A DNA stretch of 64,000 nucleotides from Psammoneis japonica (GCA_008632985.1 QPGO01000033.1:558001-622000), one strand, 5' to 3'; shown: positions 7,684-64,000, numbered from the stretch's first letter. Notes: generated from the letters alone by a model not told the origin. Numbers and translations are program-made.

Positions 7684-8879
7684 AAGAAAGATTGATACGA
7701 TGAGCGATATCTTTGTTTTTAAACGCACGTTGCGCAATTCAATTATGATACGAACAACTGTTTTTATTTTAACGCATTATGAATGGTTGGGTCGCTTAGC
7801 TCTTGCTTTCTTGTTTTCAGTTTTCAGGCTTTGTAAAACGAAGTGCAGCAGATCCTTCAAGTTCCAAAGATGCCATTCTTGAAGCTGCTTCACGCTCACG
7901 GTGAATGACACTGTCAGCAGCGACTTGTTTGCATTCAGTCTGAGCCGCTTGTCAGCAACTTGCCATTCCTCAAATGTGTCGGGTGGGATGAGTGTGCCAC
8001 ATGACTTGGAGCGCATCTCCCTTGTTTGAGACACATGATCCATTCTGGCATGCATTGTGGAAATGGAGTGGGACAGAGTCTGCATCCAATGCATGCAGAT
8101 CTGCCAACTTTGCTGGCCAGGCGGGCGCCCCATGTTTGTGGCACCTCTTGGTGGCTGCATTTGGTGGAAATTGTAAGATGTCACAATCCAGAGCCATTCC
8201 GCCAATCAGTGGTCTGGAGAGTCAAGTTCCAGAAGATCACCAGAGTGCTCTGAAATCAATTGACTGTCCAACACAGGCCCAATGGCATCCAGACAGGCTG
8301 TGACCTGCAGTTTGGAGGAAGATTGAAATCTCAGAAGCAGGGAGGCTTTCAGAAGAACAACTGATGGATTGCCAAACAAGGAGGAAGCTGTGTCAAAATC
8401 CTCAAAGAACACATGATGATCAGAGGTGACCCAACAACCAAAGGCCTTGCAACAACAATGTTGTGCTGCATCAAGGTGCTCCATTGGAGGTCCACACATT
8501 CCACCCAGGGTCATGCCGCAGGTGGGACAACTGACTTTTGACCGATCCCACAGATGGTCAATGTCTTCCTTGTCAAGGGGAAGCCCAAAATCATTTCCAC
8601 TTGACAATTCACAGTGTCGCCCTTTCTGCAACATCTGAGTCCATGAGTTGATGCACATGTCCTGACAATTCACAAACGCTCCTTGGTTTTGTGTGCTTTC
8701 TTTGCTCATTTGTGTGACACTGTGCCCTTGTCAACAAATCATGATTCCTTGGCAAGCAGATTTGTGGTTGTTTGAGACACTCTGCTCACCACAACCATTG
8801 GCCACAGGTTTGATTCACCCACATGTGTCAGAATTCTTGTCTGACATCACAAACAGCTTGCGCAACCATCATGCTTTCT

Positions 8880-11130
8880 TTCTTTTTTTCTTTGTTTCTG
8901 GCAGCAAATGATGGCTCACTTGCATTTGTGGAGCTTTTTGCCTTGGTCATGAAGCTCCCCAACATGTCATCTGTTGGACAGTGCTGTGCAGCTGCCTTTC
9001 TCAATCTGATCTGTTGCAAAAAAATGGATGTTGAGTGCCCTGCACTTTCCCTGTGCTCTTTTGTGCCCATTTGTCTCTGACTGGTGCTTTTGTTGTCCTG
9101 ACATGGGACATTCCTGTCAATTCGGTGATGAACAACTTGGTCCACAGAGTGCCATGGTCATCACATCATCAACTCCAAGCCATTTGGCCTCAGCACTGCT
9201 TTGAACATCCAGCTTCTGGCACTTGGAAAAGGCTTGCACTGCGTCATCACCCATGGTCATTGCACCTCCAGTGTGGCTCTTGATGTCTGGGTGCACCACA
9301 AATGATGCACCCACATGCCACTTCATGACTTGGAGGTTGTCAAACTCAGTGCAGCAACTTCATTTCTTGTCCAGCTCAGGCACTTGACAAATGAACTGGC
9401 TTCCCCCAATCCTTGTTGGTGGGATCTCTCAATCTTGCAAACAGTGCTGCAATTGCAGGGTGTGCATCCACGCAGCCTCTCTTGGATGGGAGCTGTCCCT
9501 TGCAACCCATGCGCGGAACATCTGTGCCTTCTTGGCTGGCAATCTGGTGCCGCCTGCCTGTGTCAAGTGGCTTCTCTCCTGCTGGCATTCTTGTGGCAGT
9601 GTCAGTGCTCTTGATCTTCTCTGGGAACTGGCCAATCAAATTGTGCATGTGCAGCTGGTTGTGTCAATTTTCGCCTTGCCTTTTTTGCTGAAATCCAGGG
9701 TGGTCATCCCCAGGTGGTTGCGCCACTTTCCTTGAGTGGCAACAACTTTGCCATGGCTCCCATGCATTTTCTTGTTGAGCCAACTCAGGAATTTGTTGTC
9801 AATCTTGGGGTTGTTGTGGCTTGACAGCAGGCTGTCTACATGATGGCACAGTGTCCACCCTTTAGAACATTGCAGTGGGGTCAGAGGCAGATGTTGTTGA
9901 TGCCACACACATCTGCAGTGTTCAATGGGTTGGGTTCAGCATGGGATGGGAGACAAACTCTCTGAAACAGAGCTCAAAATGTTTGTCATGGGCAAGGTTC
10001 CTTTGTTGCACAACAGTGTGTGGGCTGTGCATGTCTGATGTTCCCTCCTTTTGTCCATGCACACTGACACGACAGTGTTCTTGATTGCAGTGCACTTGCA
10101 CATCAACTTGGGCATTGTCTTTTGTCCAGTGGGTGGCGCACAGTTGCCCAAGTTTGCGCTTCAACAGTCTGGATGTTCTTTTCAACTTTGAGAACATGGT
10201 CGTTGGCATCTGTGGACATTGGCTCTGGGTTTGTGCACCATCCACAATGGCTGCCAGCATGTCCTTGCACTCTGGGCCACTCTCCATGAAATCAATCTTG
10301 AGCGCAGCTGTGTTGTGCTGTTGCAGGATCATGTCCAATGCCTCTCGCACATTGGCGTGGTTCTTGGACTTTAGCTTCACACTTGATTGGCACTCAATCA
10401 TCTTGTCTGTCACATGCAGTGTCTTCACTCTGCACACATCTGCCATGTCAATGCAGAACATTGTGCTTTCTCTCTGCTTCTCACAGATTTCAGGCGGCAA
10501 TGCCACAATGTCATTCCTGTTTTTGGGAACAGTGCACATGCTGGACATTTCCTTTCAGTGCATCTGTCAGTGGTCTCCACATGCCCGCCATTCTGTCCAC
10601 ATCTTCAGGTGCAATGGTCAGATTCTTCATCTGTTTTGATCACAAAAACAGTTTGAAATCCTTCACACTTGGGACTGCAGCTTTGCAATGTGGCTTGAGT
10701 GCTTTCTCAGCATCAGCTGCCTCTGCCTCTCTCACAGTGGCCCTTGATTCTGCTCCACTGTGAAAATTGTTGCTCTGGATGAGCCCCTGCACTTCTTCTT
10801 GGCAGCTTTCTTCTCATCCTTCCACAGCATGCTTGCATGCTCTTTGTGCTCTTGCAGCTCTTTGGCAAATGCAATGAATCTCTGACTCAGCGCAAACACA
10901 CACAGTTCTTCAATGATGTCAACCTTGAACACTGCAACCTTGTCCCCTGCCTTTTTTTGTGCAGCAGCCATCTGCCACTTGGTTGTCACAAGTCACGTGC
11001 AGCGCTTGTTCTTCACATCCTTTGAACCAAGGACATTCACTGTTGCATTGTCTGATCCAAGCTCAAGCATTGGAATCCCAGCACTGTGCAGTTTTTGTCT
11101 GGGGCATCAACACCTGCATCAGTTGACAGG
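8880..11130 (-). mobile_element. Degenerate Ty1/copia (CoDi-like) pol fragment, here family D: integrase, RT and RNase H with large internal deletions
   Basis: RNase H WHVGASFVVHPDIKSHTGG..KCQKLDVQSSAEA (9117-9326); RT HHVDSLLSSH..HLGMTTLDFSKKGK (9640-9850); integrase-region APEDVD..ALKG and FCIDM. Confidence 0.8.
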
Positions 11131-11244
11131 TCAATCTTGATCCTTGGCTGCCGTGCATTGGCAGGTGCAGCTGGTGGTTGCCGTTTGATGCAGGTGGTGG
11201 TTGCAGTCAGAGGTTGCAGTTGGTGGTTGCTGTTCTGTGTGTGA

Positions 11245-11542
11245 TGTTCTACAAAGTTGTTTCATGCTCCCCATTTTGCAAAGCCAAAGGCTTTCTGCTT
11301 TCAACATTTGTGAGAATGAAAACACTCTGGGGACACATTCTTTGATGTCTGCAGAATGCACCCGGGCAAACCATTGACTGTGTGCTGCAAGTGTGAAGGA
11401 GGAGATGCACTCACAAAATTGCCTCTTTTTCTGTTGGCGATCATTCATGCTTTCATCACTTGACAAATTTGCTGCAGAACTTGCACATGGAATTCTGCAG
11501 GCCCAATGTCACACGGAGTCCCGCCTGGGACTGGAGCCTGTC
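11245..11542 (-). mobile_element. Truncated copy of the GACG-TIR MITE family (one TIR only)
   Basis: Similar to 39170-39299 and to the reverse complement of parts of 48759-49714; ends in the TIR tcccgcctgggactggagcctgtc. Confidence 0.7.
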
Positions 11543-12130
11543 TGCCGTTGCCAATCATCAAAAGCTGCTGGAAGAGCTGCACTCCTTGAGCCTGGCTGTG
11601 CCCGGATCTCAGGGCCTTGTCTCAGCACTCCAAGAAAATCTCCGACATGCACTGCGCTGGACTCCAGGGTCTGAACATCTGCCAATGCTCACTCGGCGTT
11701 AGATGATTTTTGAGATCTGGAGCCCACCCTCGACACCCAACCTGCTTGCATGCAGGAACCAGCCCCACTCAAGCCAACCATCACAGGTTGTCATGGTTGG
11801 CTTGAGCAGCACCTCAAAAATGGGTGTCGGGTTTTGTTTTCATCACAGGTTGTCATGACGCTGCTGCTGGACACAGTGCCGGCAGCATTCTTCTCCCAAC
11901 AAGTGCCGCCGCTCCTGGAGCCACCAAGCTCTGATTCAGCAACTGCTGCGGATGTCAACAGTGTGATGCAGGCCCAGTCATGTGGCGGCTCCCCTTCCCA
12001 AAAAGCATCAGCTGTCGACTGGCCACATGCTCCAACCCACAAGGCCCCATCACTGACACCAACCTCAAACTTGTGGGCAGCGTCCTCCAATCCTGCAGTG
12101 CTGAAGACTGTTTCAACATCCGTGAACCAG
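11543..12130 (+). mobile_element. DIRS/Ngaro-like (tyrosine-recombinase retrotransposon) RT-RNase H fragment, degenerate
   Basis: QKLLEELHSLSLAVPGSQGLVSALQE and WRLPFPKSISCRLATCSNPQGPITDTNLKLVG resemble the RT/RNase H region of YR elements (recognised from memory of the family). Confidence 0.55.
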
Positions 12131-12987
12131 TGGTTTCAAGGAAAACAAACAAGTTGTTTCAAGGAAAACAACCAGCTGTTTCAAAGAAAACAAACAAATT
12201 GTTTCAAGGAAAACAAACGTGTTGTTTGAAGGAAAACAAACACTTTGTTTCAGGGAAAACAAACACGTCATTTCAAGGAAAACAAATGTGTCATTTCAAG
12301 GAAAACAAACGTGTTGTTTCAAGAAAAACGACCAGGGGTTTCAAGGAAAACAAACAAGTTGTTTCAAGGAAAACAAACAAGTTGTTTCAGGAAAACAAAC
12401 AAGTTGTTTCAAGGAAAACAAACATGTTTTTTCAGGAAAACAAACAAGTTGTTTCAAGGAAAACAAACGTGTTGTTTCAAGAAAAACAATTGTGTTGTTT
12501 CAAGGAAAACAAACATGTGGTTTCAAGGAAAACAAACGTGTGGTTTCAAGGAAAACAAGCGTGGTGTTTCAAGGAAAACAAACATGTTGTTTCAAGGAAA
12601 ACAAACATGCTTTTTTTGAGGAAAACAAACAAGTTGTTTCAAGGAAAAAAAAACATGTTTTTTTTGAGGAAAACAAACAAGTTGTTTCAAGGAAAACAAA
12701 CATGTTGTTTCAAGGAAAACAAACAAGTTGTTTCAAGGAAAACAAACGTGAAAGGAAAACAAACAAGTTGTTTCAAGGAAAACAAACGTGTTGTTTCAAG
12801 AAAAACAATTGTGTTGTTTCAAGGAAAACAAACATGTGGTTTCAAGGAAAACAAACGTGTGGTTTCAAGGAAAACAAACGTGTGGTTTCAAGGAAAACAA
12901 ACGTGTTGTTTCAAGGAAAACCAACGTGTTGTTTCATTGAAAACGAACGTGTTGTTTAAAGCAAAACAAACATGTTGTTTCAAGGAA
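12131..12987. repeat. Minisatellite 1: ~23-bp unit GTTTCAAGGAAAACAAAC(AA/GT/AT)GTT, about 37 copies
   Basis: Directly visible tandem array without unique spacers. Confidence 0.95.
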
Positions 12988-13171
12988 TGAATGAATGCTG
13001 ATGCACTGTCACGAGTGCAGGCAGTTTACATGCTGTTGGCGATTGGTCCACTGTCGCTTGTTTGGTGGTCCCAGCAGTGCAACATCTCACAATTCCAGAG
13101 CCTGTTGATGCTGTTCAACACTGTGTCTTGTCTCACACCCAATTCTTGGCTGTCATGGTGGCATTCATTCA
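12988..13171 (+). repeat. 5' LTR (184 bp, TG..CA) of copia family A, copy A1, followed by PBS-like cttcatcagagcc (13172-13184)
   Basis: Same length as, and similar in sequence to, the reverse complements of 32826-33009 and 54083-54266. Confidence 0.9.
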
Positions 13172-16100
13172 CTTCATCAGAGCCAACATGCTGTGATGTT
13201 CATTGCCTGGAATGGGCATCGCAAACGGTGTGACGGCATTGTTGCGATCGATCGAATTTTGCAGCAAGCGCCATGTTGGTCCCATGGTTGCTTGTGCAAT
13301 CGCTGAGTTCTTCCTGTGTGTCAACATTCATGGATGTGAACAACATGCTCTTGGAGACCAGAGCTGTGATCCGTCAGACATGACGTCAGTGGACAAAATG
13401 TTTGATCACGTGGATGGAACATGTTGGCCAAGACATGTGAACATTCATGACAAGGACAACACAATGATTCATGCATTGAGGTCTGTCATTTGATCACACA
13501 CATTTGATTGATCAAAATGCATTGTCAAATGGTTTGGACACACTGCACATGTGGGTGCATGTCTGTTGGAAATTGTTGCTCAGGAGTGACACCACCTGCT
13601 CACGGGGTTGCCAAGCAGAAGCCACCAAATCTTTTCTCACTTTTCTCCACTCACACAAGTGGACACTGCACATGTGGATGCATGTCTGTTGGAATTTGTT
13701 GTTCAGGAGTGACACCGCCTGCTCGTGAGCTTGCCAAGTGGAAACTGCCAAATCGGCACAAGAGCCACACATTTTTCTCACTTTTCTCCACTCACACAAT
13801 TGGACGCTCACGTGTTGAAACGCGAGTGACTGTTGACACACCATGGCCGCTGCCACAGCTTTTGCCGCTTGTCTCACGCATTGTTGGTGCAATGTGCAGA
13901 CGCACACCCACATGGCCAGTCAAGGCTTTGCTGCCATTCAGGACTTGGAACAGGTCCCTTTGGCAGAAATGGCTGCTGTGACCAAGGGCATCATGAAGAG
14001 CATGGACACCGCCGCCAACCCTCAAGTCCGCTTCCCACACCTGGTGAATCGCAAGTTCAAGGCACTGCACGCATGGATTGACCACTGCAGAGCCCGGAAT
14101 CAACAGCCGGCTGCTGCTCTCTTTGCTGGTGATGTTGTCAGGACATGGACGGCACGTCTCACAGAATTGGAGCAATTCAAGTCAGTGGACTTGGACGATG
14201 AATTGGCTGCCAAGACGGCCGTGGAACTCAAGAATCCACATGACTGGCCTGCCTTCCAAGAGTCACTGGAGACTGAACTGTGCCACCACCGCAGTGCTGT
14301 TGCTGGAGCACCCTTCATCTGCCCACCTGGGGAGCATGAAGACGTCACCGCCAAAATGTTAGCTGCCACCCACTCTGCCATTGACGAAGACCTTGTTGCT
14401 GCAACCCGACTTGCAGGAGCACAGCATGCACAGGACAGGCAACGCCTGCATGATCTCTTGAAGAAGCCAGTGACAGGGGGGCCCGGATGGGCTTTTGTCA
14501 AACCTTCCAATCGCAATTGTGATGGTCGCACTGCCTTGTTTCTTGCACTCAAGAGGCAGGCGGAAGGATCAGCTGCTGCCACCACCTGCAAGAACCATGC
14601 CTGTGCACAGATTGCTGCCGTGAAGCACACCGGACGGGGTTGTTTTATTTTTGACCAGCACATTGAACGCCATCAGAAGGCTCACAACGACTTGTCCAAG
14701 CTCAATGAACCGGCAGCCGAGACCAAGAAGGTCTCTGACTTTCTCAAGGGCATCTCTGACCCTGGGTTGGAGACTGGCAAGAGTGCAGTGGACGGCGATC
14801 CTGCAAAGCCAGCGGATTTCGAAGCATGCCAGCAGCACATGAAAACTCTGGTGGAAAATGCCAAGAACCGCAATGCTGACACTTGCGGAATCGCATCCGT
14901 CCAATGCCGCAACAACCGGCGCGGAAACCCTGGCGGCAAGCACCCACCCAAGAAGGACAAACCCAGAATCTGGGCAGGCCATTGTTCTGTTGAAGAGTGG
15001 AATGCTCTCAACGGTCCTGAGCAAGAGCAAGTTGAGAAGCTCCATGAGGCCAAGAAAGCCGAGAAGAGGTGCAAAGCAGCAGCTGCATCCTCGGAGGCTG
15101 AGTCGGCTGGTGCCAAAACTCGTGCTGTTAAAAAGGTGGCTGTTGCTGAGCCTCAACCCACTGATGAACAAAAGGACCCTGAAGAGTTGGAAAAACCGCC
15201 TGCTGCCAGTGCAGGCACGCAGTTCGGACGCAGCACCCACAAGAAACCTCAGAAGGAGGAACAAATGGTTGTGCCAGCACCAAAAGGCACAGAGCTGACT
15301 GCCACTGCACCTTCTGGCACTGTGCATTTATCTGGGCGATTCCCAAAGGACACACACATCTCTTTGTCATCTGCTGGACATTCAGATGGTGAAGCAACCA
15401 GTGGCTTGGACTCGCGCGCTGACACATGTGCTGTTGGGTCCAATTTTGTCATGTGCTCCAATGTCAACTGCACCATTGTAGCACATCCTTGCTCCAAAGA
15501 GTGTGCACCAATGACAATTGTCCCTGTTTGCATGGCTGCTGCCATGTGGGTTGATCCAGCTGATGGACTGCCGCACCTGCCACCAGTCCATGAGGCCATG
15601 TTTTTTGGAGACAGAACAACTGACACCCCACTGTGCCCCAACCAACTGCAAGCAAATGGGCTGACTGTCCACGACACCCCTTGCCAGTTTAATCCCAACA
15701 GCACACACTCCATTGTTTTCCCTGACTCAAAAATCAGGATGCCTTTGCACATGCGAGGTGTTGTTGCTTTGGTCTTTGACTCACACAAGCCAACTCAGGA
15801 GGATCTGGAGAACCTCCCCCAGACAGAACTCACATCACCCCTTGAATGGGAACCTTCTGCTGATGCCATGGCACAAAAGGAGGAAGAGCACGCATGTGCC
15901 AGTGTGTGCCAAGGATCAGCAAAGTCTGATGGACAGTCGACAATGATGAATGCGACCAGGTGTGTTGCTTCAATTCACTCGCATCAGACATCCCATCATG
16001 ATGAGAATGTCATTGTGGACACCAATGACAACAATTCTCTGCATCGCCACTTGTTTGCTCAGGTGAATGTCTCTCACAACAACATTGAGGGAGACGGGCC

Positions 16101-16853
16101 ACATGACCGGTGCAACCCAGACGTCCACCCGGATTGTGCTGAACGGAAACGGGTGCATGCACTGTCAACCTCGAGTCATGCATCAACTGTCACGCTCGAG
16201 ATGCTCTCTAAGAGGTGGAACATTGGCCTGACGGCCACTGAGAACACCCTCAGAGTGACAACCCAGGCAGGGGTCCGTAACTTCTGCACACCATCAGAAC
16301 GGAAAGTCCGGAAGAAAGCCCCTTGGCTTGAGTTCCCTGCTGTCAAGGGATGCTTCTACTCAGACCAAATGTTTTCGAAGGTTAAATCAACACACAGCAA
16401 GACAGGAGGAAGTGCATTTGCCAATGGAAGGGGGCATGATGGGTTCCATCCTTGGAAGAAGAAGCAGGACCACCCAAATGCCGTCACATCATTTGTGAAT
16501 TACGTTGGCACACCGCAAATCCTTGTGTCGGATGGCTCGCCAGAAATGGCAGAAGGCCAGACCAAGGACATTTGCAGGGAATGCAGGACACACCAGGAGG
16601 TGTCCACCCCATGCAGCCCCTGGCAGAACCTGGCCGAGGCATCCATTTGTGAGTTGAAGAAGAGAGTTCGTGTGACTCCATGCCAGACTGGCGCTCACAG
16701 GCAACTTTGGTCCCACAGTGCCAAATGGACATGCGACATCCGACGCATGATTGCGGTTGACATTTCAGATGTGGGAGGACAAGTCCCAGAAGAAGAGGTG
16801 ACAGGTTCAACACTTGACATCTTGTCCCTCTCTCTCTTTGACTGGCATCAACC
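12988..16853 (+). mobile_element. Copia family A copy A1: LTR, UTR with ~120-bp duplication, gag-protease-integrase (ORF from 13843), truncated at 3' end
   Basis: Protease LDSRADTC; LSKRWNIG..TLRVTTQAGVR; integrase SDG..PCSPWQNLAE. Only 2 Tyr in the 1019-codon ORF. Confidence 0.9.
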
Positions 16854-17060
16854 ACAAGACAGCGTCGAAACTTTCGGACAAGTGGCAAAAGCCGCACTCT
16901 GAAGCATGCGGCTGCGTCAACGTGAGAATGAGTGTCACCACAGTCAGGGCAACCCACCGTTGCCTCAGGGGATCCCGTGTTCCTGCCTCTCAGATCAGCT
17001 CCAGGAACCCCAGTGGGAAGATGGCGCAGGTCTGTCCCTCTACAAACGCTGAAAGACCCA
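16854..17060 (+). mobile_element. C-terminal fragment of a non-LTR retrotransposon ORF (restriction-like endonuclease type)
   Basis: KLSDKWQKPHSEACGCVNVRMSVTTVRATHRCLRGSRVP followed by QWEDGAGL in a shifted frame. Confidence 0.6.
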
Positions 17061-23860: not shown

Positions 23861-23899
23861 CCAAGCAAGAAGAACCAACCTGCAATTGCACTGTCTTGC

Positions 23900-42993: not shown

Positions 42994-45900
42994 CGGCAGG
43001 GGAAGAAGCCTTCAGCTCGCAGGCAGTCGGCGAAGCGCTCGTGCCAGCGGAGACCGGAGCTGCGCAGTCCATGCAGTGCCTTGTGGATGACAAGGATGTG
43101 TCCTTCGAGTTTGCCGAACTCGGGTCCAGCTACAATGTAAAGCTTCTCCTTGGTGGTGGCTTCAAGGCAGGCATTGCCAATGTCGGTGGCCCATGTCTCC
43201 AACTCATTGAGTTCGGCCAGGAAAATCATCAGCCGAAGGCCACGGAGGGAGACTGCTCCGGAGCAGACACTGTCGACAGGTACGTCCGTGAGGTGCCCGT
43301 CGGCTACGAGTCGTGCCTTGTGGCGACCGTCGTGTTTCACGTCGTACACTGGGTGCACTCGGATCTTCTTGTGTCCCGCAGGAGGAGTGGAAGACTTGAA
43401 GGGCCCGCAGTCATGGAAGACTTCGTATTCGTCGAGTTGGTCCATCTCGAGATTAGTTGCGTCTCCCCACTTGCGGTTGCCGTTGCGTTCGTCTAGTGAC
43501 ATGGCGTGTTTGTAGTTCCGGGGAACTTCGCATCCACACTTGCAGCGAGGTGCAGTGCGGAAGGAGCGAAGCTTGGCTTGGTTGGCCATGCGAAACAGCT
43601 TCTTTTGGTGCCTCGCGATGGTGCGGAACCGCTTCCAGCCATCCGTGTCGAGGAGTCCGTTCTCTCGTGCATAGATGGCACAGGTGACGGGGTCGTCCTT
43701 GGCGATGATGGCAAGAGGCTCGGACGTGATCTCCCCACTTTCCCATTCAAGCATGATGTTGTAGCTGGAGCCTTTCCAGGTTGGGTCGTGAGGCTTCAGA
43801 GGTCCTTCGTGTGACATGATGCATCGAAATTTCCAAACAGTGGTGTCTTCGTCTTCTTGCTCAATGTGATTCATGATGTCATTGCAGGCAAGGACTTCCT
43901 CGCATTCGTCATTGTTGACAGAGCAGACGAACTTAGTGAGCTCGGGATTGCCGTTCACTTTCCATTCGTGGTCTTCGACGGCCTTGACGATGCAAGCTCT
44001 GTGGCGTTGTCCGTCCTCTTGTGGCTGCATGAGGAAGGTGCGTCCAATGATGTCTTGCGGATCGAAAACTGGCATCTTGGGTGTCCTGATCTCCCCATCA
44101 GGAGAGTCGACGGGTTGTCGTCATGGCGAGATTTGATGATGGGTTCAGGTGGCTCCCCATCAGGAGGATCAAGATGCAAGTTTCGAACGGCAGGATCGGG
44201 GGCAGCGGAGCGGACGTTGGACCGGCAGAGGATCTTCTGAGTCTCGTCAGATAGAATCTTGAAGGTCATCTGGTGGCCGACGTGCTCAGCAATGCCAACG
44301 AAGCGTCCACGCAACTCACGGGATTCGGACGGCCAATCGGAGTCATCGAGGTGGAAGCACACGGGTTCCCACCAGTGAAAGCGAAGCAATGGGCTGATGT
44401 CCGGGGTGGAGCCAGTGAGAGTCTCGAGGGGCGTGCGCCAGTGGAGACGTGGGGACGCTGTGTGGTTGAGCATGAAGCACACGTACATGAGCGCCAGCAG
44501 CCATGTGTGGGCGGGCGAACCAAAACGATCCATGACAGTGTTCGCCATGCGCTTCACGGTCTGGCATCAACGCTCGGCAAAGTTTTGGTGTTGCTGGTGA
44601 GCGGGGTTGGGTGATTTGCAGGCCTTGCGAAGGTGTGTACCGGCGGGCATGCGGGCGTACTGCGTGGTGCAGTCAAAAGTACGACGGACCGCATCGGCAG
44701 GTAGGAAGCCAAAGTAAGGCCGAAGAGACTCAAAGGGGGGGTCCTTGGGCTGTACAGTGCGCTCCGGAGGTGGAACGTCATCGCCCTGGGGGCCAATCGC
44801 ATGCAGATGACACTCGTAGAACACGTCGTCGTTCGGAATGAGGTGATCATCGAGGGCGGACGCGTGATCGGCAGACAAGGAAGCGGACATGATGGTCTCG
44901 TTGACAACGACACGATGACGGTAGTTGCCACATTCGTCAAACAGGTTGGCAGTGGGATCGTCCTGCAGGTCAGAGATCGCGTCGCACCACTGGTCGTCGT
45001 CAGTGACAGAGTGATCAAGGACGGAAGGGTCCCATGTGTCATCACCGGTGAGGATGACATGGGGCAGGGTGTCCCATTCGGCGTCAGTGTAAGGTCGCAT
45101 GGCAACATAAGGCAGGCCAGCCTTGATGTCAATGGGGATGACATAGACATCAGGAGTGGCAATACGCTGCAAGCCATTGGGCACCTTGACAGAGCGATCG
45201 TTGACATCCTGTTTGTACCATTCGAGCTGGCCGCAGGAATGGATGGTCTTGCCCTTGCCCGTGCATGCGCACTGATGGAGGATGGCGATGACGGGACCAC
45301 GCTGGGTCTCAATGACGGCACCAGCGGTGACAATGGGGATGTCTGCCAATTGATGATCGTCAATGCCCTGAACGTCGACTTGGCAAGAGGTGCGTGCAAT
45401 GACGCGAACGTCGTCACCAGCAATGCCGCCGTTGGCCCCACGATCGACTAGAGCGCCAGTGCGTGTGGAGCGATGAGCAGAGGCAGAGCAAATGACATTG
45501 TGGTTGTCAACGCGGCGGTGAGTGCGGCCATTAAGTTCTGTGTCATCTGCAGAAGCTGGCTGGGTAGAGGAAGCGGCGGATGGCCCCGGTCGACTGGCAT
45601 TGGGGGCTTGGTTAGGAGACAACAGACGTTGCAGATCACCGGGTGGCAGTGGCTTGCGTTTGGCGAGGTGCGCCAGGATGGGATTATCCGAAGTGGCGTC
45701 CACATGTGGAGCGGAGTCACCAGAGTCAGCAGGAGTCATGTTGGACAAGTTGACATCACCGTCACTCCCAAGGCGTTGGTCGTGAAGGTTGGCCGTAACA
45801 GACTCATGGCAGTCACTGGCTCGCGGGTTGCGGGGAGGTGGACGAGAATGCTCAAGGATGATCGCCTTGGAGGAATCGGGCAACGAATCCCAGAGCCGTT

Positions 45901-48353
45901 GGTGGTCGGGAGGGAGACGTCTCCATTGGACACTGGTGAGGCTGGGACCGCGGGTGCAGGCAGCATTGGCTTGAAGGACGTCAACGTCGCTGTCAATGTC
46001 GTAGAACACATCGTCGGACGGTTCCTCGGAGTAGACGTCGTGTGCGCACATGGCGCGTCGGGGAGCTCGAGGTGTCGTCTTGGGTTGAAACGTGCTGTTG
46101 TACTGAGCTGCCGCGGAGAGGAGCAAGCCACAGCATTGATCGTATGTGAGGCTCTTGCCACTCTGCGTACGATGCTGATCAGCTTGGTTCTTGACAGCAC
46201 GGAGTTCCTCGACAGGGTGCACGGCATTCTCGAGCATGACGCGCTTCTGTCCTTCAGAGAAGTGGTCACTGGCCGGGATGAGTGCCTCGTACTTGCGCAA
46301 CTGATCTTGCCAATGAAGGATGAACCCGTGGGTCGGACCTTTCCAAGTGCCATCACCAAGACGTGCGGTGGTGAGGCACGTGAGCAGGGTGGAGGACTCG
46401 ATGGATGCGCGGGTGGAGGCAAGCGCGCACTCAGACAAGGAGCGGCAGACGGTCTGTGCATCAGAAGACCCCACATTTTCGCGAATGGGAGCCTTGCCCT
46501 TGTCGGTGAGAAGGATGCGTTCGAAGACGGTGAACATGCACTTTTGCTGTTCAGCAAAGAGCAGCTTGTCTTCGGGGCTGGTCGGTTTGTACGACGAGTC
46601 TAGAATGCACTCGACGTCTTGGGCACGGGCTTGTGCCACAAGTGAGGTGTGCCAAGTGTGCCACTGCTTGTCGGATTTGAGAGCCGTGAAAGCGGTGGGA
46701 TCACGCTTGATGCCTCGCTTGAAGTCCCGCACCGGGTCGCGTGCCTTGGTCGGGTTGGTGACATGTGGAGGTGCAAGGGGTGAGCTGCCGATGGACACAC
46801 AAGACATGCAGTCGGGGCTGAGGCGGCAGGCAAGGAACTCGTCATGCGCGAACAAAGAGGAGTCATTGGCAACGTCAAGACCTTTGTGTGCTTTGACAAT
46901 GTGCAGACTGACTGGTGCTGCTAACATGTTCTTATAACCACGGGGCAAAGGGATCACATTAGTGCCGTTGTCGCACTCAAGCGAGTCGATTTGGGACGGT
47001 GTGAACGTGAACAGTTCCTGATGCGAGTCCGTGCCGTCTTGGGCCAAAGCCAAACGAAGAGGACTCCCAGCACCTTGGGCAAGCACGGTTCCAACCACGT
47101 GCTCGAAACCATCGGTTTGTTGCTGACGAGTGAGAACCATGGCAGACAAAAGTGGTGTCAGGACAATCAATTCTGGTTGGGAAGCGAAGGTAGACTCGAA
47201 ACTTGGGTGAGAACAGACTTGACTTGAAATGGACTTGACTTGAAATCTTGAACTGTCTTAAAATCAGAAGTCGCCGGGCTTTGTTATCCCGTTCGTTGTT
47301 GAGTGCTAAACTTCCTATCCGGTCCGTAGAGTTGTGCCGGCACGTCCGGACCCGCAGCCAGTGGCGCTTTGGGTTGCTTGCGAGCGGAGCAGCGGGTTGT
47401 AAACCCCTGCAGGTGAGCTGACCAGAGGTGGACAAGACCCCCGAACCGTTCTTATTTTACATCGGTTGGATTTCCCGATCAGGCTGGCCAGTTGACGCAG
47501 GCGTCAGGCGCTGTGGACGAACAAACAAACGCGGGAAAGCACCCTCGCCCCAACGCAGGCTGTGGTCACGGCTGCTTGCTCTCACAGTCGTCCTCGTGGA
47601 CCCAGCAGAACTGTAGAGCACCAGCAGTCCGGGGTAGATCAGGTACAATGGACTCGGTGTGCTTGTAGAGTGGTGGCAAAACCGCAGTCCGAAGAGTGGG
47701 TACAGGTTCTTGGCCGTGAAGATGTGCACACATACATGTCTTCAGCGACAAAGATCCTTGAATATGCAGGGTTCTTGACCGTTAACCGATGAATGGGTAT
47801 GTCAAGGGATGAGGATCAAGGATAGACTTGGACATGACCGTTGAATGTATGTCTTCAGCGATCAAAGGTAGCACAATCAATCCAGATATCCAGCGGTAAG
47901 GAGACTTGACGGTGACGTTAACTTCCTGCCGATGCCCTGGCATTGAATGCGCGTAGACTTGCCGATGCATGTAGAATGTATACGGAGGTCCACGTAGAAT
48001 TGAAATAGCGTCGTTGGTAAATCAACGACGACGATGGCGGTTGCTCAATGGGTTGACAATGAGCAAGACTGTTAATCTGACAGAAATTGAAGGCAAATGG
48101 CAAGAGTTCAAACAACAACTCCTTACTGCTGTCCAAATGGCAGATGAGTCTCCGCTCAGAGACCGTTGCAGGAGCCGAAAGACGTGCAAGTCGGCATGAT
48201 CGGGCTACTGTCATTGTTCTTGTGAGCCTTGTGGCTCGAAAGCAAACTACATCGCGCGTGAACGCGCGGAACTAAAGCACACAAAACTGTGCACGGTAAA
48301 CTAAACAGCGCGCGATGCTTCGCGCGCACCCAAATCCTGTTCAAATCCTGTCA
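42994..48353 (-). mobile_element. Younger copia element, here family C (CoDi-type): 5' LTR, gag-pol from ~47140, integrase core deleted, truncated within RT
   Basis: DFKRGIKRDP, protease LVDRGANGG, HQNFAER, VYDVKHDGRHKARLVADGH, DIGNACL, ALHGLRSSG. Starts TGACAGG on the minus strand exactly at the break in family A. Confidence 0.9.
47429..48353 (-). repeat. Putative 5' LTR of element C (inner boundary uncertain)
   Basis: TG at the outer end; a candidate CA end is followed after 4 nt by TGGTCAGCTCACC (PBS-like). No second LTR is available for confirmation. Confidence 0.45.
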
Positions 48354-51525: not shown

Positions 51526-54082
51526 CGCCATGGCATCAGCAGAAGGCTCCCATCTCAGGGGTGATGTGAGTTCCAGCCGGGGAAGGTTCTCCAGATCCTC
51601 CTTTGTTGGCTTGTGTGAGTCAAAAACTGAAGGAACACCTCGCATGTGCAACGGCATCCTAATCTTCGAGTCAGGGAAAGCAACAGAGTGTGCACTGTTA
51701 GAATCAAACTGTCGAGGGGTGTCGTGGGCAGTCAGTCCATTTGCTCGCAGTTGGTTGGGGCACAGCAGATTGTCAGTCATCCTGTCCCCGAAAAACATGG
51801 CCTCATGGGCTGACAGCAGGTGTGGTTGTCCATCAGTTGGATCAACCTGCACAGCAGCAGCCGTGCAAATGGGAATGTTTTTCATTGGCGCGTGCTCTTC
51901 GAAGCAAGGGTGCACCATGACAGTGCGGTCGATGTCAGAGTGCATTGCAAAATTGGACCCAACAGCACACGCATCAGCATGCGAGTCCAAGTCATTGGTT
52001 GCTTCACCATCTGAATGTCCAGCAGATGACAAAGAGACACACACATCCTTTGAGAATTGCCCAGACAAATGCACAGTGCCAGCAGGTTCAGCAACAGTCG
52101 GCTCTGTGCTTTTTGGTGCTGGCGCAACTGTTCATGCCTCTTTCTGAGGTTTCTTGTGGGCGCTGCGTCTGAACTGCTTGCCTTCGTTGGCAGCAGGTTT
52201 GCCTGACTCTTTGGAGTCCTTTTGTTCATCAGCAGGTTTGGGTTCAGGCTCGGCGACAGCCACCTTTTTAACAGTGCAAGTTTCGACATCAACCGACTCA
52301 GCCTCTGAAGATGCAGCTGCTGCTTTGCATTTCTTCTTGGCTTTTTTGGCCTCACAGAGCTTCTTGACTTGCTCTTGCTCAGGACCATCAAGAGCACTCC
52401 ACTCTTCAATGGGACAGTGGCCTGCCCTGATCCTGGGCTTGTCCTTTTTTGGTTGGTGCTTGCATCCAGGGTTTCTGCACCAGTTGTTGTGGCGTTGGAC
52501 GGATGCGATTCCGCCAGCATCAGCATTGCAGTTCTCAGCATTTTCTGCCAGAGTCTTCACACGCTGCTGGCATGCTTCGAAATCCACTGGCTTTGTTGGG
52601 TCTCCATCCACTGCACTCTTGCCAGTCTCCAACCCAGGGTCGGAGACACCCTTGAGAAAGTCAGAGACCTTCTTGGTCTTGGCTGCCGGCTCATCAAGCT
52701 TGGACAAGTCATTGCGAGCTTTCTGATGGCATTGAGCGTGCTGGTCGAAAGTGAAACAACCCCATCCAGTGCACTTTGCGGCAGCAATCTGTGCACAGGC
52801 ACGGTTTTTTGGGGTGGTGGCAGCAGCCGATCCTTCCGCCTGCCTCTTGAGTGCAAAGAAGGCAGTGCGACCATTGTGGTTGTGATTGGAAGGTTTGACA
52901 AAAGCCCACCCGGCCCCCCCTGTCACTGGCTTCTTCAAGAGATCACACAGGCATTGCCTGTCCTGTGTGTGCTGAGCTCCTGCAAGTCGAGTGGTGGCAA
53001 TGAGGTCTTTGTCAATGGCAGAGCAGGTGGCAGCCAACATTTTGGCAGTGGCGTCTTCATGCTCCCCAGCCAGGCAGACAAGGGGTGTGCCGGCAATGGC
53101 ACTGTGGTGATGGCGTGGCTCACTCTCCAGCAACTCTTGGAAGGCAGGCCAGCCATGCAGATTCTTGAGTTCCACGGCCGTCTTGGCAGCCAACACATCG
53201 TCCGAGTCCGCTGACTTGAATTGTTCCAGTTCTGTGAGACGTGCCATCCATGTCCCAATGACGTCACCAGCAAAGAGAGCAGCAGTCGGCTGTTGGTTTC
53301 GGGCTCTGTGGCAGTCAACCCATGTGCGCAGTGCCTTGAACTTGCGATTCACCAGGTGTGGGAAGTGGACTTGCGGGTTGGCGGTGGCATCCACGCTTTT
53401 CACAATGCCCTCAGTCACAGCAGCAATCTCTGCCAAAGGGGCCTGTTCCAAGTCCTGAACAGCAGCAAAGCCTTTGCCGGCTGTGCAGGTGCGCGTCTGC
53501 ACATTGCATCCACAATGCACAAGACAAGCGGCAAAGGCCGCGGCAGCGGCCGCCGTGTGTCAGCAGTCACTTGCATTTCGATGCGTGAGCATCCACTTGT
53601 GTGAGTGGAGAAAAGTGAGAAAAGATTTGGTGGTTTCTGCTTGGCAACCCCGTGAGCAGGTGGTGTCACTCCTGAGCAACAATTTCCAACAGACGTGCAC
53701 CCACATGTGCAGTGTGTCCAAACCATTTGACAGCGCACTTTGGTCAAACAAATGCGCACAGTCAATTGACAGACCTCAGCACACAAATCATTGTGTTGTC
53801 TTCATCACAAATGTTTGCATGTCTCAGCCAACATGTTCCATCCACGTGATCAAACATTCCGTCCACTGACGTCATGTCCAGCGGATCACAGCTCTGGTCT
53901 CCAAGAGCGTGTCGTTCACATCCATGAATGTTGGCATGTGCAAAAGACTCAGCGATTGCGTGAGCAACCATGGGACCAACATGGCTCTTGCCACAAAAAT
54001 CGATCAATCGCAACGTGCCGTTGCGCTGTTTGCGATGCCCGTTCCAGACGATGAACATCACAGTGCATTGGCTCTGACAAAG

Positions 54083-54266
54083 TGAACAAATGCCACCATG
54101 ACAGCCAAGAACTGGGCACAGGACAAGACAGGGTGTTGGACAGCATCAACAGGTTCTAGAGCTGTGAGATGTTGCGCTGCTGGGACCACCAAACAAGTGA
54201 CAGTGGACCAATCGCCAACAGCACATGAACTGCCCACATTTGTAACAGCATGTCAGCATTTGTTCA
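54083..54266 (-). repeat. 5' LTR (184 bp) of copia A3/4, followed on the minus strand by PBS-like ctttgtcagagcc
   Basis: Matches 12988-13171 and 32826-33009. Confidence 0.9.
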
Positions 54267-54485
54267 TGATTTTGCACCCTTTGCGATTTTGCACCCTTTG
54301 CCGCCACATTGCGCCCTTTGCGATTTTGCACCCTTTGCCGCCATTTTGTGCCCTTGGTCATTTTGTGCCCTTTGCGATTTTACATCCTTTGTGATTTTGC
54401 ACACTTTGCCGCCATTTTGCGCCCTTTGTGATTTTGCGCCCTTGGCCATTTTGTGCCCTTTGTGATTTTGTGCCCTTTGCCGCCA
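54267..54485. repeat. Distal remnant of minisatellite 2
   Basis: Same 17/20-bp units, in the same orientation as 38795-41262. Confidence 0.9.
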
Positions 54486-54769: not shown

Positions 54770-57700
54770 GACACGGCCTCATTGTCGCAGAAGACGTTGG
54801 CGGAGCCATCGATGGGAGCACCCATCATGTGAAGCTTGTGTCGAAAGGCCTCGATCTGCTCCACGGCAATTTTCATCACAACAAATTCCACATTCCTGAA
54901 AACGTGATTGATTGAAGGTCAGTTCCGTGTCATCGAACACCATCGCTGACCTGGCATGTGCCTTCAAACAGGCAAAGATGTGAAACTCCTCATCCAGGTG
55001 CCCAACCCTTGGTGCTGCCAAGCAAGAAGACAGAAGAGAGACTGGCGCTGCAATGTCAGTGCGCCCCAGTTCCACCACCCAACACAAAACGCCAATGAGT
55101 CCCTGGAAACAAGTCGCCCTTCGGGCATCCAGCTCAGGTGCAGCGTCAAGTTCAGGGTGATGCCCCAAACTCAATGGCGTTGTGACTCTCTTCTTGAGTC
55201 CCCGGCCTGCACGGCCGAGTTCAAACTCAATGTTGGCAGTGGCCCGCTTGACACACAAGTTAGATGAAAGGGCCCAACATGTTTTGCCGTCCGAGTCAGA
55301 TGGTTGGAACTTCTTCACTTCGGCACCCAGGTGCTCTTCCGGTTCCTTGACGCTTCCCTCTTTTAGCACATGTCTCAAAGCCATGTAATCCATGAACTTC
55401 TGGGGTTCATGCGAGACAACCAGCAGGTCATCTGCATGTGCAAGCATGCATTCCCAGCACTTGAAGCCATCCAGCTTGGCATTCTTGTGCATCCACACAT
55501 CGGGATCACCCTTGCCACAGGTGAATCCCACGAGCCTTGGCGTTGCTGCCACATGTTCCCTAAAAGCAGCGCCGGAACTCTTCAGTCCGCACAGGGCCCT
55601 GACAATTTCAACGGGTCGACCGACACTCTGCTTGCCAAAGTCCAGGCCAGCAATTGTGCAACAGCACTCCTTCATTGGTGCATTCAGACGAGCATTCTGA
55701 ATGTTGGCACACATGACTTCCAAGTCATTCAGAGCTGCTGTCGTGTGGCCTCCAGCCACGTGTTGCGCTTTCCTGTTCAAGTCCAACTTGATGTCAAACA
55801 CCAAGTGGCACTTAATTTCCTTGTGTCCCATCTGGTCATCATCGACAAATTCGAAGGCTGGCATTGCATTGTGCATCTCCTTCTCAATTGCATTTCCCCG
55901 CAGGTCAAGCCCAGACTGTTCATCCAGCATCAAGGCCTGCTCCACGGATTTTGGCAATTCGACACCGAATTTGTGAGTGCGCTTCCAGCACCTGGTCTTG
56001 ACTTTCATGACCATCCTGGCATGACGACGCAACATGTCTCGAACCCACCAGTTGAACGCTGGCTCACCAGCCATCTCATTTGCAACAGCATGCTCCGTGA
56101 CTTGGACAGGGAATGATTCTTTTGCCTCCGACAAAGGGAGCCAACTAGAGCTTCCATCTTTCCACTCAAACTGTGTGTCCCAGTCAATCGTCGTTCGGCG
56201 GGGCCTGCGCGTGCCACTCTTTGTGACAAAGAAACCATCATCTTTGTGCACTGTGCATGCGTCACTTTGGTGACCTGCAATCTCTTTGACAATTTGGCAA
56301 GATCGTCCCTCCCCTTCAACCTGGGAGCAGATGTTCTCAGCAATTAAATTGGCTGTGAACATGTCGGCAGATCTGTCTGGGAACTCTACCTCGCAAAGCC
56401 GTGAATCCAGGACAGGCTTTTTGTGCCGCTTCCCTGTCTGATTTCCATCCGCAACGCGCTTCCTGGCAACAACTTTTGCGTGCTGCAGCTCACCAGCTCG
56501 TGTGAGCCTAAGTTCCACCGCCAGACACTCATCCATTGCCTCCGGCGTGAACTCATCTGCTTCCAGATGAGTTGCATCTTCTTTGAATGGCTCTGCATTG
56601 GCATCTTCCTTGCCAAATGGGTCTTCGGGTGGTTCTGGGAACTTGTCACTCCCTTCCTGACCGTCCCCTGGCCTGAGTTTCAGACTGGCATCGAGATGCT
56701 CAATCTTTTGCCAAATCGCATTGGTCTTCAAGTCATCCTCAGGCAGAGCCCACACATCCTTCCAAATGATGGGTGTGCCTGATTCAGGTGGGATCACAAA
56801 TGCCATGTCATCTGCACAGTTTTCTGTGACACCTGACCAGCGCCCGATGCACTTCCTTTCAAAGGGAAATTTTGCCTGAAATGTCATAAAGTGCACCGGC
56901 TGGCACCAGTTGAAGAGGGCATGAGCTGAGACGTCTGGTGTTGAACCCGTGATGTCCTCTTTGGGGACTTTCCCATCCATTTCCGGATGCTCAGAGGCCG
57001 TGAGCCTCCTGACAGCCATGGCCCACTTGGCACAGCAGGACCAGCAGCGTTTTGGCGCATTCGTGCGCCTTGTTGCAATCCGCACTTTCTTCTTCAGCTC
57101 ACGAATGGAGGCTTCGGCCAAGTTCTGCCGTGGACTGCAAGGAACAGCAACCCCTTGTTTGATCTGGCACCCCAATGATTCGTAATGGGATCCGGACCTT
57201 GGAGTCCGGGAAGGCAATTGAATGAGTGCTGGAGCTGCCAAACTGCTTTGGCACATCATGCACCATCAAGCCGTCAGCATGGAGCTGATTGGGACATGTC
57301 AGTGAGTGTTTCATCCTGTCCCCAATGTGCATGGCCTCATTCAAGATGAGGAGGTGTGGCTGACCAGAACTTGGGTCAACCCAGACAGCAGCAACCGTCT
57401 GCATCGGGATGTTGTTGATCGGGTCACATTCACTGGAATGTGGATGTGCAGTGAAAGCACGAGAGGGGTCAGAGAAGGGAACACAGCTGGATCCTGCAAT
57501 GCATGTGTCGGCATGCGTGTCCAGCTTGTTGAAAAGGGAGTTGTCACCTGCATCAGTGTTGACTGAAGCTGTGTGTCTTAAGGATTTAGCAAAAGGCACA
57601 GACACATTTCCATTGGTGCAGACAGAAGCAGCATCACAAGAATTGATTTGAGACTCCATTTTAACTTCTACAAGGTTGTTGTCCTTGCTCATTGGCGCAA

Positions 57701-59846: not shown

Positions 59847-59849
59847 CTG

Positions 59850-62800: not shown

Positions 62801-62927
62801 TCCATGGTTGCACACGCCTCACCAGAGCCTTCCTTGACCGTCCCTGACAAGAAGGCCAAGCCTGCATCTCACTCGAAACCAGCACCTCCTTCATTGTCTG
62901 GTGATGTGCCATTGTCTGGGGAGGGAG
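59850..62927. other. TpA-depleted decayed coding-like sequence, unassigned
   Basis: Broken frames such as RRTCRACQCQDCKGRGG near 60770 and 62212-62847; no domain recognised. Confidence 0.3.
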
Positions 62928-63264
62928 GAAGCGTTCCAGGCGCAGGTGGGAATCCGTGTGACATTGGGCCCGCAGAATTCTGCGTGCGAGCTCCGCAGTA
63001 AAATCACACGGCAATTAAAATGTGAAGTGCATCGTTTTTTACTCAGCCAGCTACATTCTTCAACCATTGAAGAGCGCAACTGGTGCATTGTTGTTTCCAC
63101 AAATTCGTCACACAAAACATCTGGGGCTTCGCAAAACAGTGCTTCTGGACAATTTTTTAAAATGTCACATGTGGAAATGCATGTGCGAAACATGCGACGG
63201 ATGACAAAAATCATTTGTGTCACACGTCAGTGCTGCGAGCTCCCACCTGGGGCTGAAACGCGTC
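62928..63264 (+). mobile_element. MITE (337 bp), TSD GGAG
   Basis: ggag|gaagcgttccaggcgcaggtggga ... tcccacctggggctgaaacgcgtc|ggag. Confidence 0.9.
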
Positions 63265-64000
63265 GGAGGCGCGCCGGACTCTCACCGCTGACCTTCCGTC
63301 ACTCTCAGAAATGATGGAAAACCAAAAACCTGCTCCCACCTCCAAAGGCCCTTTGTCCAAACTGCGTTCCTCTCCTCCGTCTGTTTCGGGCAAATCTTCC
63401 TGCAGTTGCGTCTCCTCCCAGCAACCCTGATGACATGTCGTGGCTGGACAAGTCCACACTCTGCAATCACTTTGACCTGTCCAAGTGTCGGCCCGCCACC
63501 ACCGAGGAAGTTGCTTCTCATTTGTCACACCTGCACATCATTGACAAAGCCACCAACACTGATCAGTTTCTTCGTCATTCCGCTGACTTTCACCTGGCAG
63601 ACAACTTGCGGGAAAACTGGCACACGTTCTCAAACAATGCGCCTTCATGTGATTCCGCCACCGCATCTTGTGTCCGAACCAAGCACCCTCCTGACCTTGA
63701 TCACTTCTCCAAGGAACTCTCCATTGCCAGACAAGCCAACTCTCTGTGCAAAGGGCACTTTGGGTGCATTCGTGTGTGCATTCCTGCCCTCCTTGGAGAG
63801 AGTGAGCTGCGGGATGAATTTGCAGCGGGTGCGTTTGATGATGCAAAACTGGTCATGGACAGGGGAGACGTTTCGACATTGGACACATTCCAGGTCTAGG
63901 TGGGACCTCACACTGCTGAACTGTGACATCGACAGTTTTTTGAATCGCGTCGTGTGTCGCGCACGTACATTTCTGCGTGATGTTGGCAAAATTTTGCATG

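Follow-up and report, generated by a model that had tools for sequence, protein, structure and literature searches.

In a 64,000-nt stretch of the Psammoneis japonica genome (GCA_008632985.1, QPGO01000033.1:558001-622000, analyzed as one strand and referred to here as the window), host genes of ordinary composition give way to a domain of decayed Ty1/copia retrotransposons, satellites and other DNA from which the dinucleotide TpA (TA) has been nearly erased. On balance, we favor the reading that this silenced, CpG-decaying transposon DNA has undergone A:T-to-G:C hypermutation at TpA, in place, probably through an adenine deaminase that we infer from the pattern. In such a process the T:A pairs of TpA steps would be converted to C:G, with TA becoming TG or CA, at about 100 times the background rate of substitution and several-fold faster than CpG decays in the same DNA; both strands would be hit equally, the attack would break off a few tens of bases short of host genes, and damage would build up with the age of an insert.

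The initial annotation of this DNA had pointed to a scarcity of TpA after about position 7850 in comparison with the host genes, and the composition of the window bears this out. Over 7851-64000, the span used for all counts in the erased domain, TA is observed 273 times versus 3387 predicted by base composition, and CG 2011 times versus 3622 expected. The observed/expected ratio (o/e) of TpA is 0.00-0.12 in almost all 2-kb intervals past 8 kb and 0.48-0.65 in those of the host genes, which are thus themselves mildly TA-poor; 727 of 935 60-nt lines lack any TA in the erased domain, versus 8 of 108 in host DNA. Within 2-kb intervals of erased DNA, TG and CA are raised (o/e ~1.3-2.0), CpG is lowered (o/e 0.14-0.7), and G+C is 45-58% in nearly all; neither AT (o/e ~0.9) nor AA/TT (o/e 0.9-1.5) is depleted. 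The edge of the domain is abrupt, with TA dense until 7834 and the next TA only at 8174. This dinucleotide profiling, which had been envisaged on the scale of the genome, was run across the window, where it confirmed the loss of TA and in addition brought out a small erased island between two host genes and a half-erased element (Table 1).

Several lines of evidence indicate that the missing TA was once there. Erased copies were mapped by tblastn with intact copia polyproteins of about 1400 aa (such as P0131, 1409 aa), which were themselves found by sequence search, and Y1, a younger copia of a different family, with P0161. Where the Tyr positions of P0131 align to erased copies (n=138), the copies have Cys 56 times, His 44, Phe 13 and Tyr 4; in the control comparison of intact with intact homologues (n=95 Tyr) the corresponding counts are Tyr 64, Phe 12, His 3 and Cys 0. 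The protein of copy A1 contains 0.2% Tyr, 3.5% Cys and 5.3% His, compared with 3.1-4.1% Tyr and 1.1-1.6% Cys in 15 intact homologues. If a codon is considered Tyr-supported when Tyr is present in three or more of the 6 intact queries, the 105 such codons now read TGC (32), TGT (19), CAC (20), CAT (16), TTY (12), TAY (3), CGT (2) and CTC (1), and Cys or His stands at 87 of the 90 Tyr codons that derive from TA. Changes of Ile to Thr or Met, Val to Ala and Leu to Pro are likewise raised, as expected from ATA, GTA and CTA, and changes of Arg to Gln, Cys or His carry the mark of ordinary CpG decay.

The relatives of these elements are normal. The control loci, the best 80 of 561 metagenome copia loci (the best-scoring relatives being intact by construction), have a median TA o/e of 0.72 and a minimum of 0.33 in any 1-kb interval. 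Among the matches listed in two word-based searches, families A and B have 151 distinct relatives, every one of them normal in TA or Tyr, and a search with the erased family B protein gave 113 further matches, all with at least 2.85% Tyr. Of the 150 Y1-related representatives, two are without Tyr and two are part-depleted. (Four public proteins deserve mention here: P0199 from Logan and P0223 from ENA, and partly P0205 and P0232, are reverse transcriptases of copia type in which Tyr is at 0% and Cys plus His at 8-12%, and in P0199 and P0223 the Tyr of the NAYL, ALYGL and YVDD motifs is replaced by Cys or His. At 49-53% identity to Y1, these proteins belong to another family or organism.) The initial annotation had argued that the ancestral pair was TA rather than CG, citing Leu-to-Pro and Val-to-Ala changes, and had named an equal poverty of TA and Tyr in intact copies among the findings that would speak against its proposal. 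The replaced Tyr codons, the raised Leu and Val changes, and the normal Tyr and TA of intact relatives all support that view.

The damage arose separately in each copy. The three copies of family A that were compared are about 82% identical, and when their differences are tabulated by dinucleotide, a tabulation suggested earlier for copies against intact family members and made here between copies in the window, transitions dominate (79-83%). Double differences of CA versus TG number 98, 83 and 58 in the three pairwise comparisons (98 in 2861 nt) and other doubles at most 17, with transversions at 3-5% and transitions outside pyrimidine-purine steps at ~3.5%. If each TA had been resolved independently, TA alone would give ~51 doubles per 2861 nt; CpG, for which 128 alignment sites have CG in some copies and TG or CA in others, is estimated to add ~18 (using a per-copy CpG loss of ~50%). 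On these numbers, essentially all of the erasure is estimated to be later than the separation of the family A copies. Part of the excess of TG and CA is due to CpG decay, which the initial annotation had left unseparated.

The surviving TA, together with the products, show a context rule. Erased DNA amounting to 50,322 nt retains 180 TA, for which the 22,394 TA of the 80 control loci, representing other copia families, served as reference. The contexts of the survivors differ from those of the controls (chi-square 261, p=5e-51): TTAA (45 sites) exceeds its control share 4.5-fold, CTAA and GTAA exceed theirs ~2.2-fold, ATAC has one survivor and ATAT has 0. Survival is 33% for TTAA, 13% for CTAG, 1.2% for GTAC and <0.5% for ATAT. 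An additive half-site model, with ~3.0, 2.2, 1.0 and 0.55 hits for A, G, C and T 5' of the T, reproduces most of the 10 contexts (CTAA 0.21 predicted and 0.17 observed; ATAC 0.0055 and 0.003), but it misses GTAA (0.064 predicted, 0.16 observed) and CTAC (0.04 and 0.075), which show about 2x the survival predicted. Relative to the controls, the gains in trinucleotides per 1000 are +19 for ACA/TGT, +29.5 for GCA/TGC, +10 for CCA/TGG, +5 for TCA/TGA, +8 for ATG/CAT and +22 for TTG/CAA. At Tyr codons, the share of CA is 13/22 after A, 13/31 after G, 5/18 after C and 5/16 after T, and the model predicts ~0.54, 0.46, 0.29 and 0.18, respectively.

Because the mutated pair follows the hot flank, both in the ACA/GCA gains and in the CA share at Tyr codons, the unit of attack is a trinucleotide whose central base is mutated, R-[T]-A giving R-C-A or, read from the opposite strand, T-[A]-Y giving T-G-Y (R, purine; Y, pyrimidine). 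The order of the flanks is A>G>C>T 5' of the T, equivalent to T>C>G>A 3' of the A, and TTAA survives longest because T 5' of the T (A 3' of the A) is the weakest flank. Both strands are affected, as had been proposed: in the sense orientation, TGY rises by 22.7 per 1000 as TAY falls by 31.3, and RCA by 13.4 as RTA falls by 23.3. The excess of Cys over His (51:36) is due to context rather than to transcription. By an arithmetic estimate, a hot half-site has received ~3 hits against ~3% background change per copy, a rate ~100-fold higher, and CpG has received ~0.7 hits per site. (The loss of CpG relative to the controls also varies with context, at -49% for TCG/CGA, -40% for ACG/CGT, -31% for CCG/CGG and -19% for GCG/CGC, a pattern that may reflect a preference of methylation or deamination or a difference in composition.)

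The erasure behaves as a process that acts on chromosomal DNA over time. Across 56 1-kb intervals, depletion of TA and of CpG is correlated (rho 0.54, p=1.5e-5; without the Y1 region, rho 0.34, p=0.016). Y1 is about half erased, with a TA o/e of 0.24-0.4 and a near-normal CpG o/e of ~0.9, and at its 42 Tyr positions Tyr is present 13 times, Cys 11 and His 3; with half of its TA gone and its CpG only slightly reduced, TA loss must be faster than CpG decay. The correlation, the position of half-erased Y1 between the erased fragments of A4, the erasure of DNA other than retroelements, and double differences found between the window and a separate DNA run (see below) indicate that the chromosome was probably attacked in place, rather than at insertion. 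The involvement of both strands, and of DNA other than retroelements, also supports the earlier suggestion of a process at the level of DNA.

The unusual sequence is reproduced by contigs assembled separately from a public DNA run, here called X1. The run contains 72% of the words sampled from 4001-13900. Its Logan contigs, with a word depth of ~55 and breaks at repeats such as short-read graphs produce, each differ from the window by 4-8 letters and span 1-5758, 7254-9843 and 10588-11142. Over the ~3.8 kb of erased DNA that they include (2432-3702, 7835-9843 and 10588-11142), there are ~20 differences from the window versus at least 150 if TA density were normal, and TA is not restored by any of the X1 differences listed in erased DNA. 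At the sites 8765/6 and 9660/1, which are about single-copy, TG/CA doubles separate X1 from the window (2 of 11 differences, versus 0 of 13 in host DNA). Differences of TA versus TG/CA also occur at 753 and 5195 in host DNA and at 3184 in the island, in numbers too small to judge leakage into genes.

The most likely chemistry would be that of an ADAT/TadA-like deaminase acting at silent chromatin, which would convert an adenine that follows T to hypoxanthine; the hypoxanthine would then pair with C. Because TpA is its own complement, attack on the adenine and attack on the thymine leave the same sequence. Adenine deamination is favored because in known ADAT/TadA substrates a U (or T) precedes the target A, as in U33-A34 of tRNA, and because T-A-C, the context in which bacterial TadA acts, ranks second among the contexts here; the same 5' base is shared by fungal TAD2/TAD3 mRNA editing and by laboratory adenine base editors. 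Unlike the agent proposed here, the natural enzymes act on RNA, and literature searches found no natural chromosomal DNA adenine deaminase. Because TA-to-TG/CA changes cannot create a stop (TAG gives TGG or CAG; TAA gives TGA or CAA), the elements are disabled by missense changes, with Tyr becoming Cys or His even in the YxDD box of reverse transcriptase (CMDD, HADD); loss of signals that contain TA would add to the inactivation. The outcome would serve as a heritable inactivation of transposons. More tentatively, and with confidence well short of even, one may suppose that an enzyme of the diatom lineage, either a chromatin-targeted DNA adenine deaminase of tRNA-deaminase descent or one that makes thymine pair as cytosine, rewrites T-A-Y as a heritable, stop-free 'reverse RIP' (RIP, repeat-induced point mutation), by which transposons would be put out of action for good and lose their signals that contain TA. 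The initial annotation had offered both an adenine deaminase and a thymine modification; each is compatible with the pattern, and no gene for either is seen in the window. Its third idea, turnover of N6-methyladenine, fits poorly and is unlikely as a cause, since ApT is spared (AT o/e ~0.9). Photoproducts of ultraviolet light at TA were also set aside: these give transversions, and 79-83% of the differences here are transitions.

A number of observations weigh against in-place hypermutation by a deaminase, or against parts of that proposal. The effect of the flank at Tyr codons is borderline (Fisher p=0.05 for A versus C/T, 0.08 for R versus Y), and at sites mixed among the three copies the model does no better than 50:50, although the selection of such sites itself forces a ratio of ~50:50. 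The survivors in Y1 depart from the model (GTAC 12 versus ~3 expected), possibly as a result of G+C-rich composition, and the control composition was drawn from other copia families. The confirming run, X1, is perhaps from the same sample as the assembly, its platform being deduced from contig depth and length, so that its agreement is strong support short of proof, and the allelic evidence from X1 is thin, at 2 sites. The deaminase itself is deduced from the pattern, with no candidate gene seen in the window, and a role in defense is a further step, as the erasure could be a by-product. The location of the damage also resists simple rules. The claim of the initial annotation that erasure is restricted to repeats was not upheld: the block at 7835-11900 has almost no copy elsewhere in the window (short matches at 11253-11544 only), the island at 2432-3702 has no other copy within the window by blastn, and both are about single-copy by X1 word depth (for the block, ~60 near its start at 8005-8671), which argues against a simple repeat rule as the trigger. 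Neither contains a recognizable transposon protein by Pfam searches of the window frames. Conversely, the piece at 47191-48302 has normal TA inside the erased domain, which argues against simple spreading across the domain. This piece, which possibly is the 5' long terminal repeat (LTR) or leader of Y1, terminates abruptly at an erased A4 fragment, and no repeat of it was found within the window.

Among the alternatives, the most serious contender, though we think it unlikely, is a thymine mark placed at TpA, for example by TET/JBP-type oxidation to 5-hydroxymethyl- or 5-formyluracil, which mispairs with G and yields T-to-C changes as a by-product. Dinoflagellate 5-hydroxymethyluracil (5hmU) has a preference for TpA, and base J occurs at the TpA of trypanosome telomere repeats. 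Such a mark predicts the identical outcome, R-[T]-A to R-C-A being the same as T-[A]-Y to T-G-Y; it would need neither a dedicated mutator nor a function in defense, and the gradual erasure, which tracks CpG decay, resembles that known by-product of a silencing mark. It is less easily reconciled with a rate ~100x background, which is high for a side effect, or with a window in which no thymine-modifying gene was seen, and the literature matches listed for 5-hydroxymethyluracil and diatom are dinoflagellate-centered only. In Breviolum, 5hmU is reported to be enriched over repeats, but its base-resolution map is described as having no sequence motif (PMC11071213). We consider it quite unlikely that the RNA or cDNA was instead edited during retrotransposition by ADAR/ADAT- or APOBEC-like activity, so that the inserts arrived already damaged. 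Independent outcomes in copies of the same family would be explained, as would a Y1 whose coding part is half erased and whose upstream 1.1 kb (possibly LTR or leader) is not, given that editing gradients are known for reverse transcripts; Y1 Tyr codons are also more often TG than CA (11:3). However, both strands are hit similarly in the sense orientation, 7835-11900 and the island are about single-copy and lack a retroelement protein, TG/CA doubles distinguish X1 from the window at single-copy sites, and the correlation of erasure with CpG decay and relative age is not predicted by editing at insertion.

Error-prone patch repair, in which T:G mismatches from deamination of 5-methylcytosine lead to miscopying of nearby A:T pairs by a polymerase-eta-like enzyme, would account for the correlated loss of TA and CpG in the same DNA, and the WA-to-WG hotspot of polymerase eta (W, A or T) includes TA. 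That signature should hit AA as well, but AA/TT is spared in erased DNA (o/e 0.9-1.5) and AA-to-AG differences are close to those in the GA context (66 versus 39 between A1 and A3). The strong rule for the 3' flank and the near-complete loss of TA at ~50% CpG loss also misfit a process driven by CpG, and we regard this explanation as very unlikely. Slightly less probable still is a technical artefact, in which a modified TA is misread and the true sequence retains TA. Some long-read base-callers do make systematic errors in the consensus at modified motifs, and the platforms of the assembly and of X1 are not on record; but because the separately built X1 contigs reproduce the TA-free sequence with ~20 rather than at least 150 differences, an error of base-calling is unlikely. 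Moreover, the Tyr-free P0199 and P0223, which represent other copia families, come from separate public contigs, and the copies in the window are dead in any case, being truncated and frameshifted, with decayed CpG and an in-frame TGA. Finally, it is scarcely credible that these families were always poor in TA or had it removed by selection. Host DNA is itself mildly TA-poor, but the 80 control loci and the 151 listed relatives of families A and B are normal in TA or Tyr, conserved catalytic Tyr residues are replaced, and where one copy has CA another has TG. A native composition is already refuted in the case of families A and B.

Hypermutation at TpA can be set beside several known systems, and the initial annotation was correct that its direction is opposite to that of fungal RIP. 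RIP is a premeiotic process that is triggered by duplication above a threshold of length and identity and depends on a methyltransferase of the RID/DIM-2 type; it is confined to repeats and transposons and, like the process here, stops abruptly at its edges, damages both strands and yields dead copies whose dinucleotide indices are skewed. RIP resembles the process in the window as a heritable, DNA-level hypermutation by transitions with a dinucleotide preference (PMC2621366, PMC7882544). However, RIP makes TpA from CpA and raises A+T, the reverse of the loss of TpA and rise in G+C seen here; stop codons arise through RIP but cannot arise through the process in the window; and the host here is a stramenopile. 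The direction is evident in the loss of TpA, the TG/CA o/e of 1.3-2.0 and the replacement of Tyr by Cys or His. As for duplication, the copia families are repeated, yet 7835-11900 and 2432-3702 are about single-copy, although old erased copies would share no words. Diatom DNMT4 enzymes are described as related to fungal RID and of unknown function (PMC9998398).

Decay of methylated CpG is alike in that silenced DNA loses a self-complementary pyrimidine-purine step to TG/CA over time, and it is present in the same DNA (CpG o/e 0.14-0.7, the 128 CG/TG/CA sites, Arg to Gln, Cys or His); it cannot remove TA, and is here a second, ordinary process. APOBEC3 and ADAR provide a precedent for hypermutation of retroelements by deaminases with a neighbor preference that becomes fixed in genomes (PMC4866542). 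In contrast to the present case, they act on single-stranded cDNA or RNA and are strand-asymmetric, giving G-to-A, or A-to-G on one strand; here TGY (+22.7) and RCA (+13.4) are both gained and DNA other than retroelements is erased too. Moreover, the 3' preference here is T>C>G>A, and that of ADAR is for a 3' G. Base J and dinoflagellate 5hmU are cases of enzymatic modification of T in nuclear DNA, with 5hmU over Breviolum repeats; these marks are not reported to cause erasure of T to C, and among the papers listed none placed them in diatoms. For 5hmU in Breviolum, no motif was found (PMC11071213). Full-text searches of the open-access literature turned up no account of hypermutation directed at TpA, whether in diatoms or in other organisms.

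The elements of the erased domain (Table 1) belong to Ty1/copia, with protease, integrase, RVT_2 reverse transcriptase and RNase H in that order, and P0131 residues 53-1409 are covered in A3. The large frames of A1 (1021 aa, 13837-16899) and B (828 aa, 54782-57265) have 2 Tyr each, as had been noted for lengths of 1019 and 826 aa. In A1, the conserved Tyr are changed in 6 of 6 cases; B carries the motifs RALCGLKSSG and AHADDLL. The altered motifs quoted earlier, ALCGL, ALHGL, CMDD, HADD, PCSP and PHSP, are all present in translated frames. Pfam matches to RVT_2 occur in two frames only (33819-34856 and 42639-44120). A3 retains a 184-nt remnant of its 3' LTR at 33009-32826 and has a single in-frame stop, a TGA at 33816-33818 (minus) where relatives have Arg (P-R-x-G-H-L), as expected of a CGA-to-TGA change by CpG decay rather than of the TA process. 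None of the elements in the window retains both LTRs, and Y1 has no direct repeats. Satellites, one of 23 bp and another of 17 bp, adjoin family A copies at their 5' ends. The 23-bp satellite is a major satellite of the genome, because its summed word depth in X1 (159,351 in the bin 12007-12673) compares with ~55 in unique DNA; it varies mainly at a site that alternates between CG, CA and CAA, and so is of little use for judging TA.

Table 1. Features of the window and their positions
Feature	Position	Strand	Remarks
Sodium/bile-acid symporter family host gene	484..2088	+	Pfam SBF E=4e-24; TA 13-26 per 500 nt, normal
TA-free, CpG-poor island	2432..3702		Between two host genes; 3 TA (2957, 3183, 3278) in 1271 nt
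Weak ion-transport-like frame	4275-5657	+	Host; TA and CpG normal
Cytochrome P450 host gene	5911-7683	+	Pfam p450 E=1e-47; TA and CpG normal
TA-erased domain, whole	7835..64000		Runs past window end; 273 TA versus 3387 expected
Most strongly erased block	7835..11900		TA o/e 0.02-0.03, CpG o/e 0.14-0.26
23-bp satellite, 37.5 copies	12133..12987	+	TRF; directly upstream of A1
Copia A1 (5' region and gag-protease-integrase, truncated past integrase)	12987..16902	+	tblastn P0131 residues 53-538 at 15391-16854
Copia A3, near full-length	32826..38700	-	Polyprotein 37207-33165; tblastn P0131 residues 53-1409; RVT_2 E=1.7e-9
17-bp satellite array	39308..41260		TRF; 0 TA in 39501-42500; also beside A2 at 54269-54486
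Copia A4, 3' part	41301..42989	-	tblastn P0131 residues 419-812 and 963-1126; erased
Copia Y1, younger, other family	42978..47140	-	tblastn P0161 residues 1-1503; truncated in reverse transcriptase; between A4 fragments
Normal TA and CpG piece	47191..48302		38 TA in 1112 nt; directly upstream of Y1 polyprotein start
Copia A4, 5' part	48642-48376	-	tblastn P0131 residues 321-409; far side of Y1; blastn to A1 on both sides
Copia A2 (5' region and gag-protease, truncated)	51526..54267	-	blastn to A1 83% over 2219 nt; tblastn 52065-51526; erased
Copia B (integrase to RNase H)	54772..57629	-	tblastn P0131 residues 23-1344

Other parts of the erased DNA contain tandem repeats of long units, at 27300-28295 (279 bp), 49944-50335 (198 bp) and 59063-59562 (273 bp), and a stretch resembling class-III aminotransferases at 22487-23383 (+). 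The capture of host genes proposed in the initial annotation was not confirmed, as the only non-transposon match is this weak one to Aminotran_3 (E=4e-5, below the Pfam cut-off, with no PDB relative); the stretch could be a decayed fragment of a host gene. The window has 64 stop-to-stop frames of at least 200 aa, on both strands and in all phases, often overlapping and mostly without a family match. Most of these are not genes: long false frames arise because TAA and TAG are gone, leaving TGA as the sole stop.

The host genes lie at the start of the window. The symporter gene has an 81-nt GT..AG intron at ~1338-1418, and the best named relatives of the P450 are from pennate and centric diatoms (Epithemia 48% identity, Mayamaea 45%), with other records reaching 57%; the genes thus mark the host as a diatom-like stramenopile. 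None of the public runs listed is recorded as RNA. A second run, X2, is recorded as 'DNA?' but looks like RNA, because one of its contigs splices out the symporter intron (skipping 1337-1419). Its contigs map to the host genes and give zero cover of 8005-12006, a blank that was not used as evidence.

The practical consequence is that annotation of genes and transposons is misled in such DNA, with false frames in six phases and profile searches defeated. Tyr-free 'proteins' from TA-erased DNA are already in public collections, and gene finders will call false proteins in 7851-64000 of the window. For the biology of the organism, the erasure of TA may represent a novel means by which cells disable mobile DNA, and there is a realistic chance that new enzymology lies behind it. 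Targeted hypermutation is known from fungal RIP (C-to-T) and from vertebrate APOBEC editing; an A:T-to-G:C counterpart in a stramenopile alga, with a trinucleotide rule of its own, would mean that the same logic of defense had arisen again with a new chemistry. A natural deaminase that acts on adenine in chromosomal DNA, should this be the agent, would be of direct interest for base editing; a mutagenic mark on thymine would instead point to an unknown epigenetic modification in diatoms.

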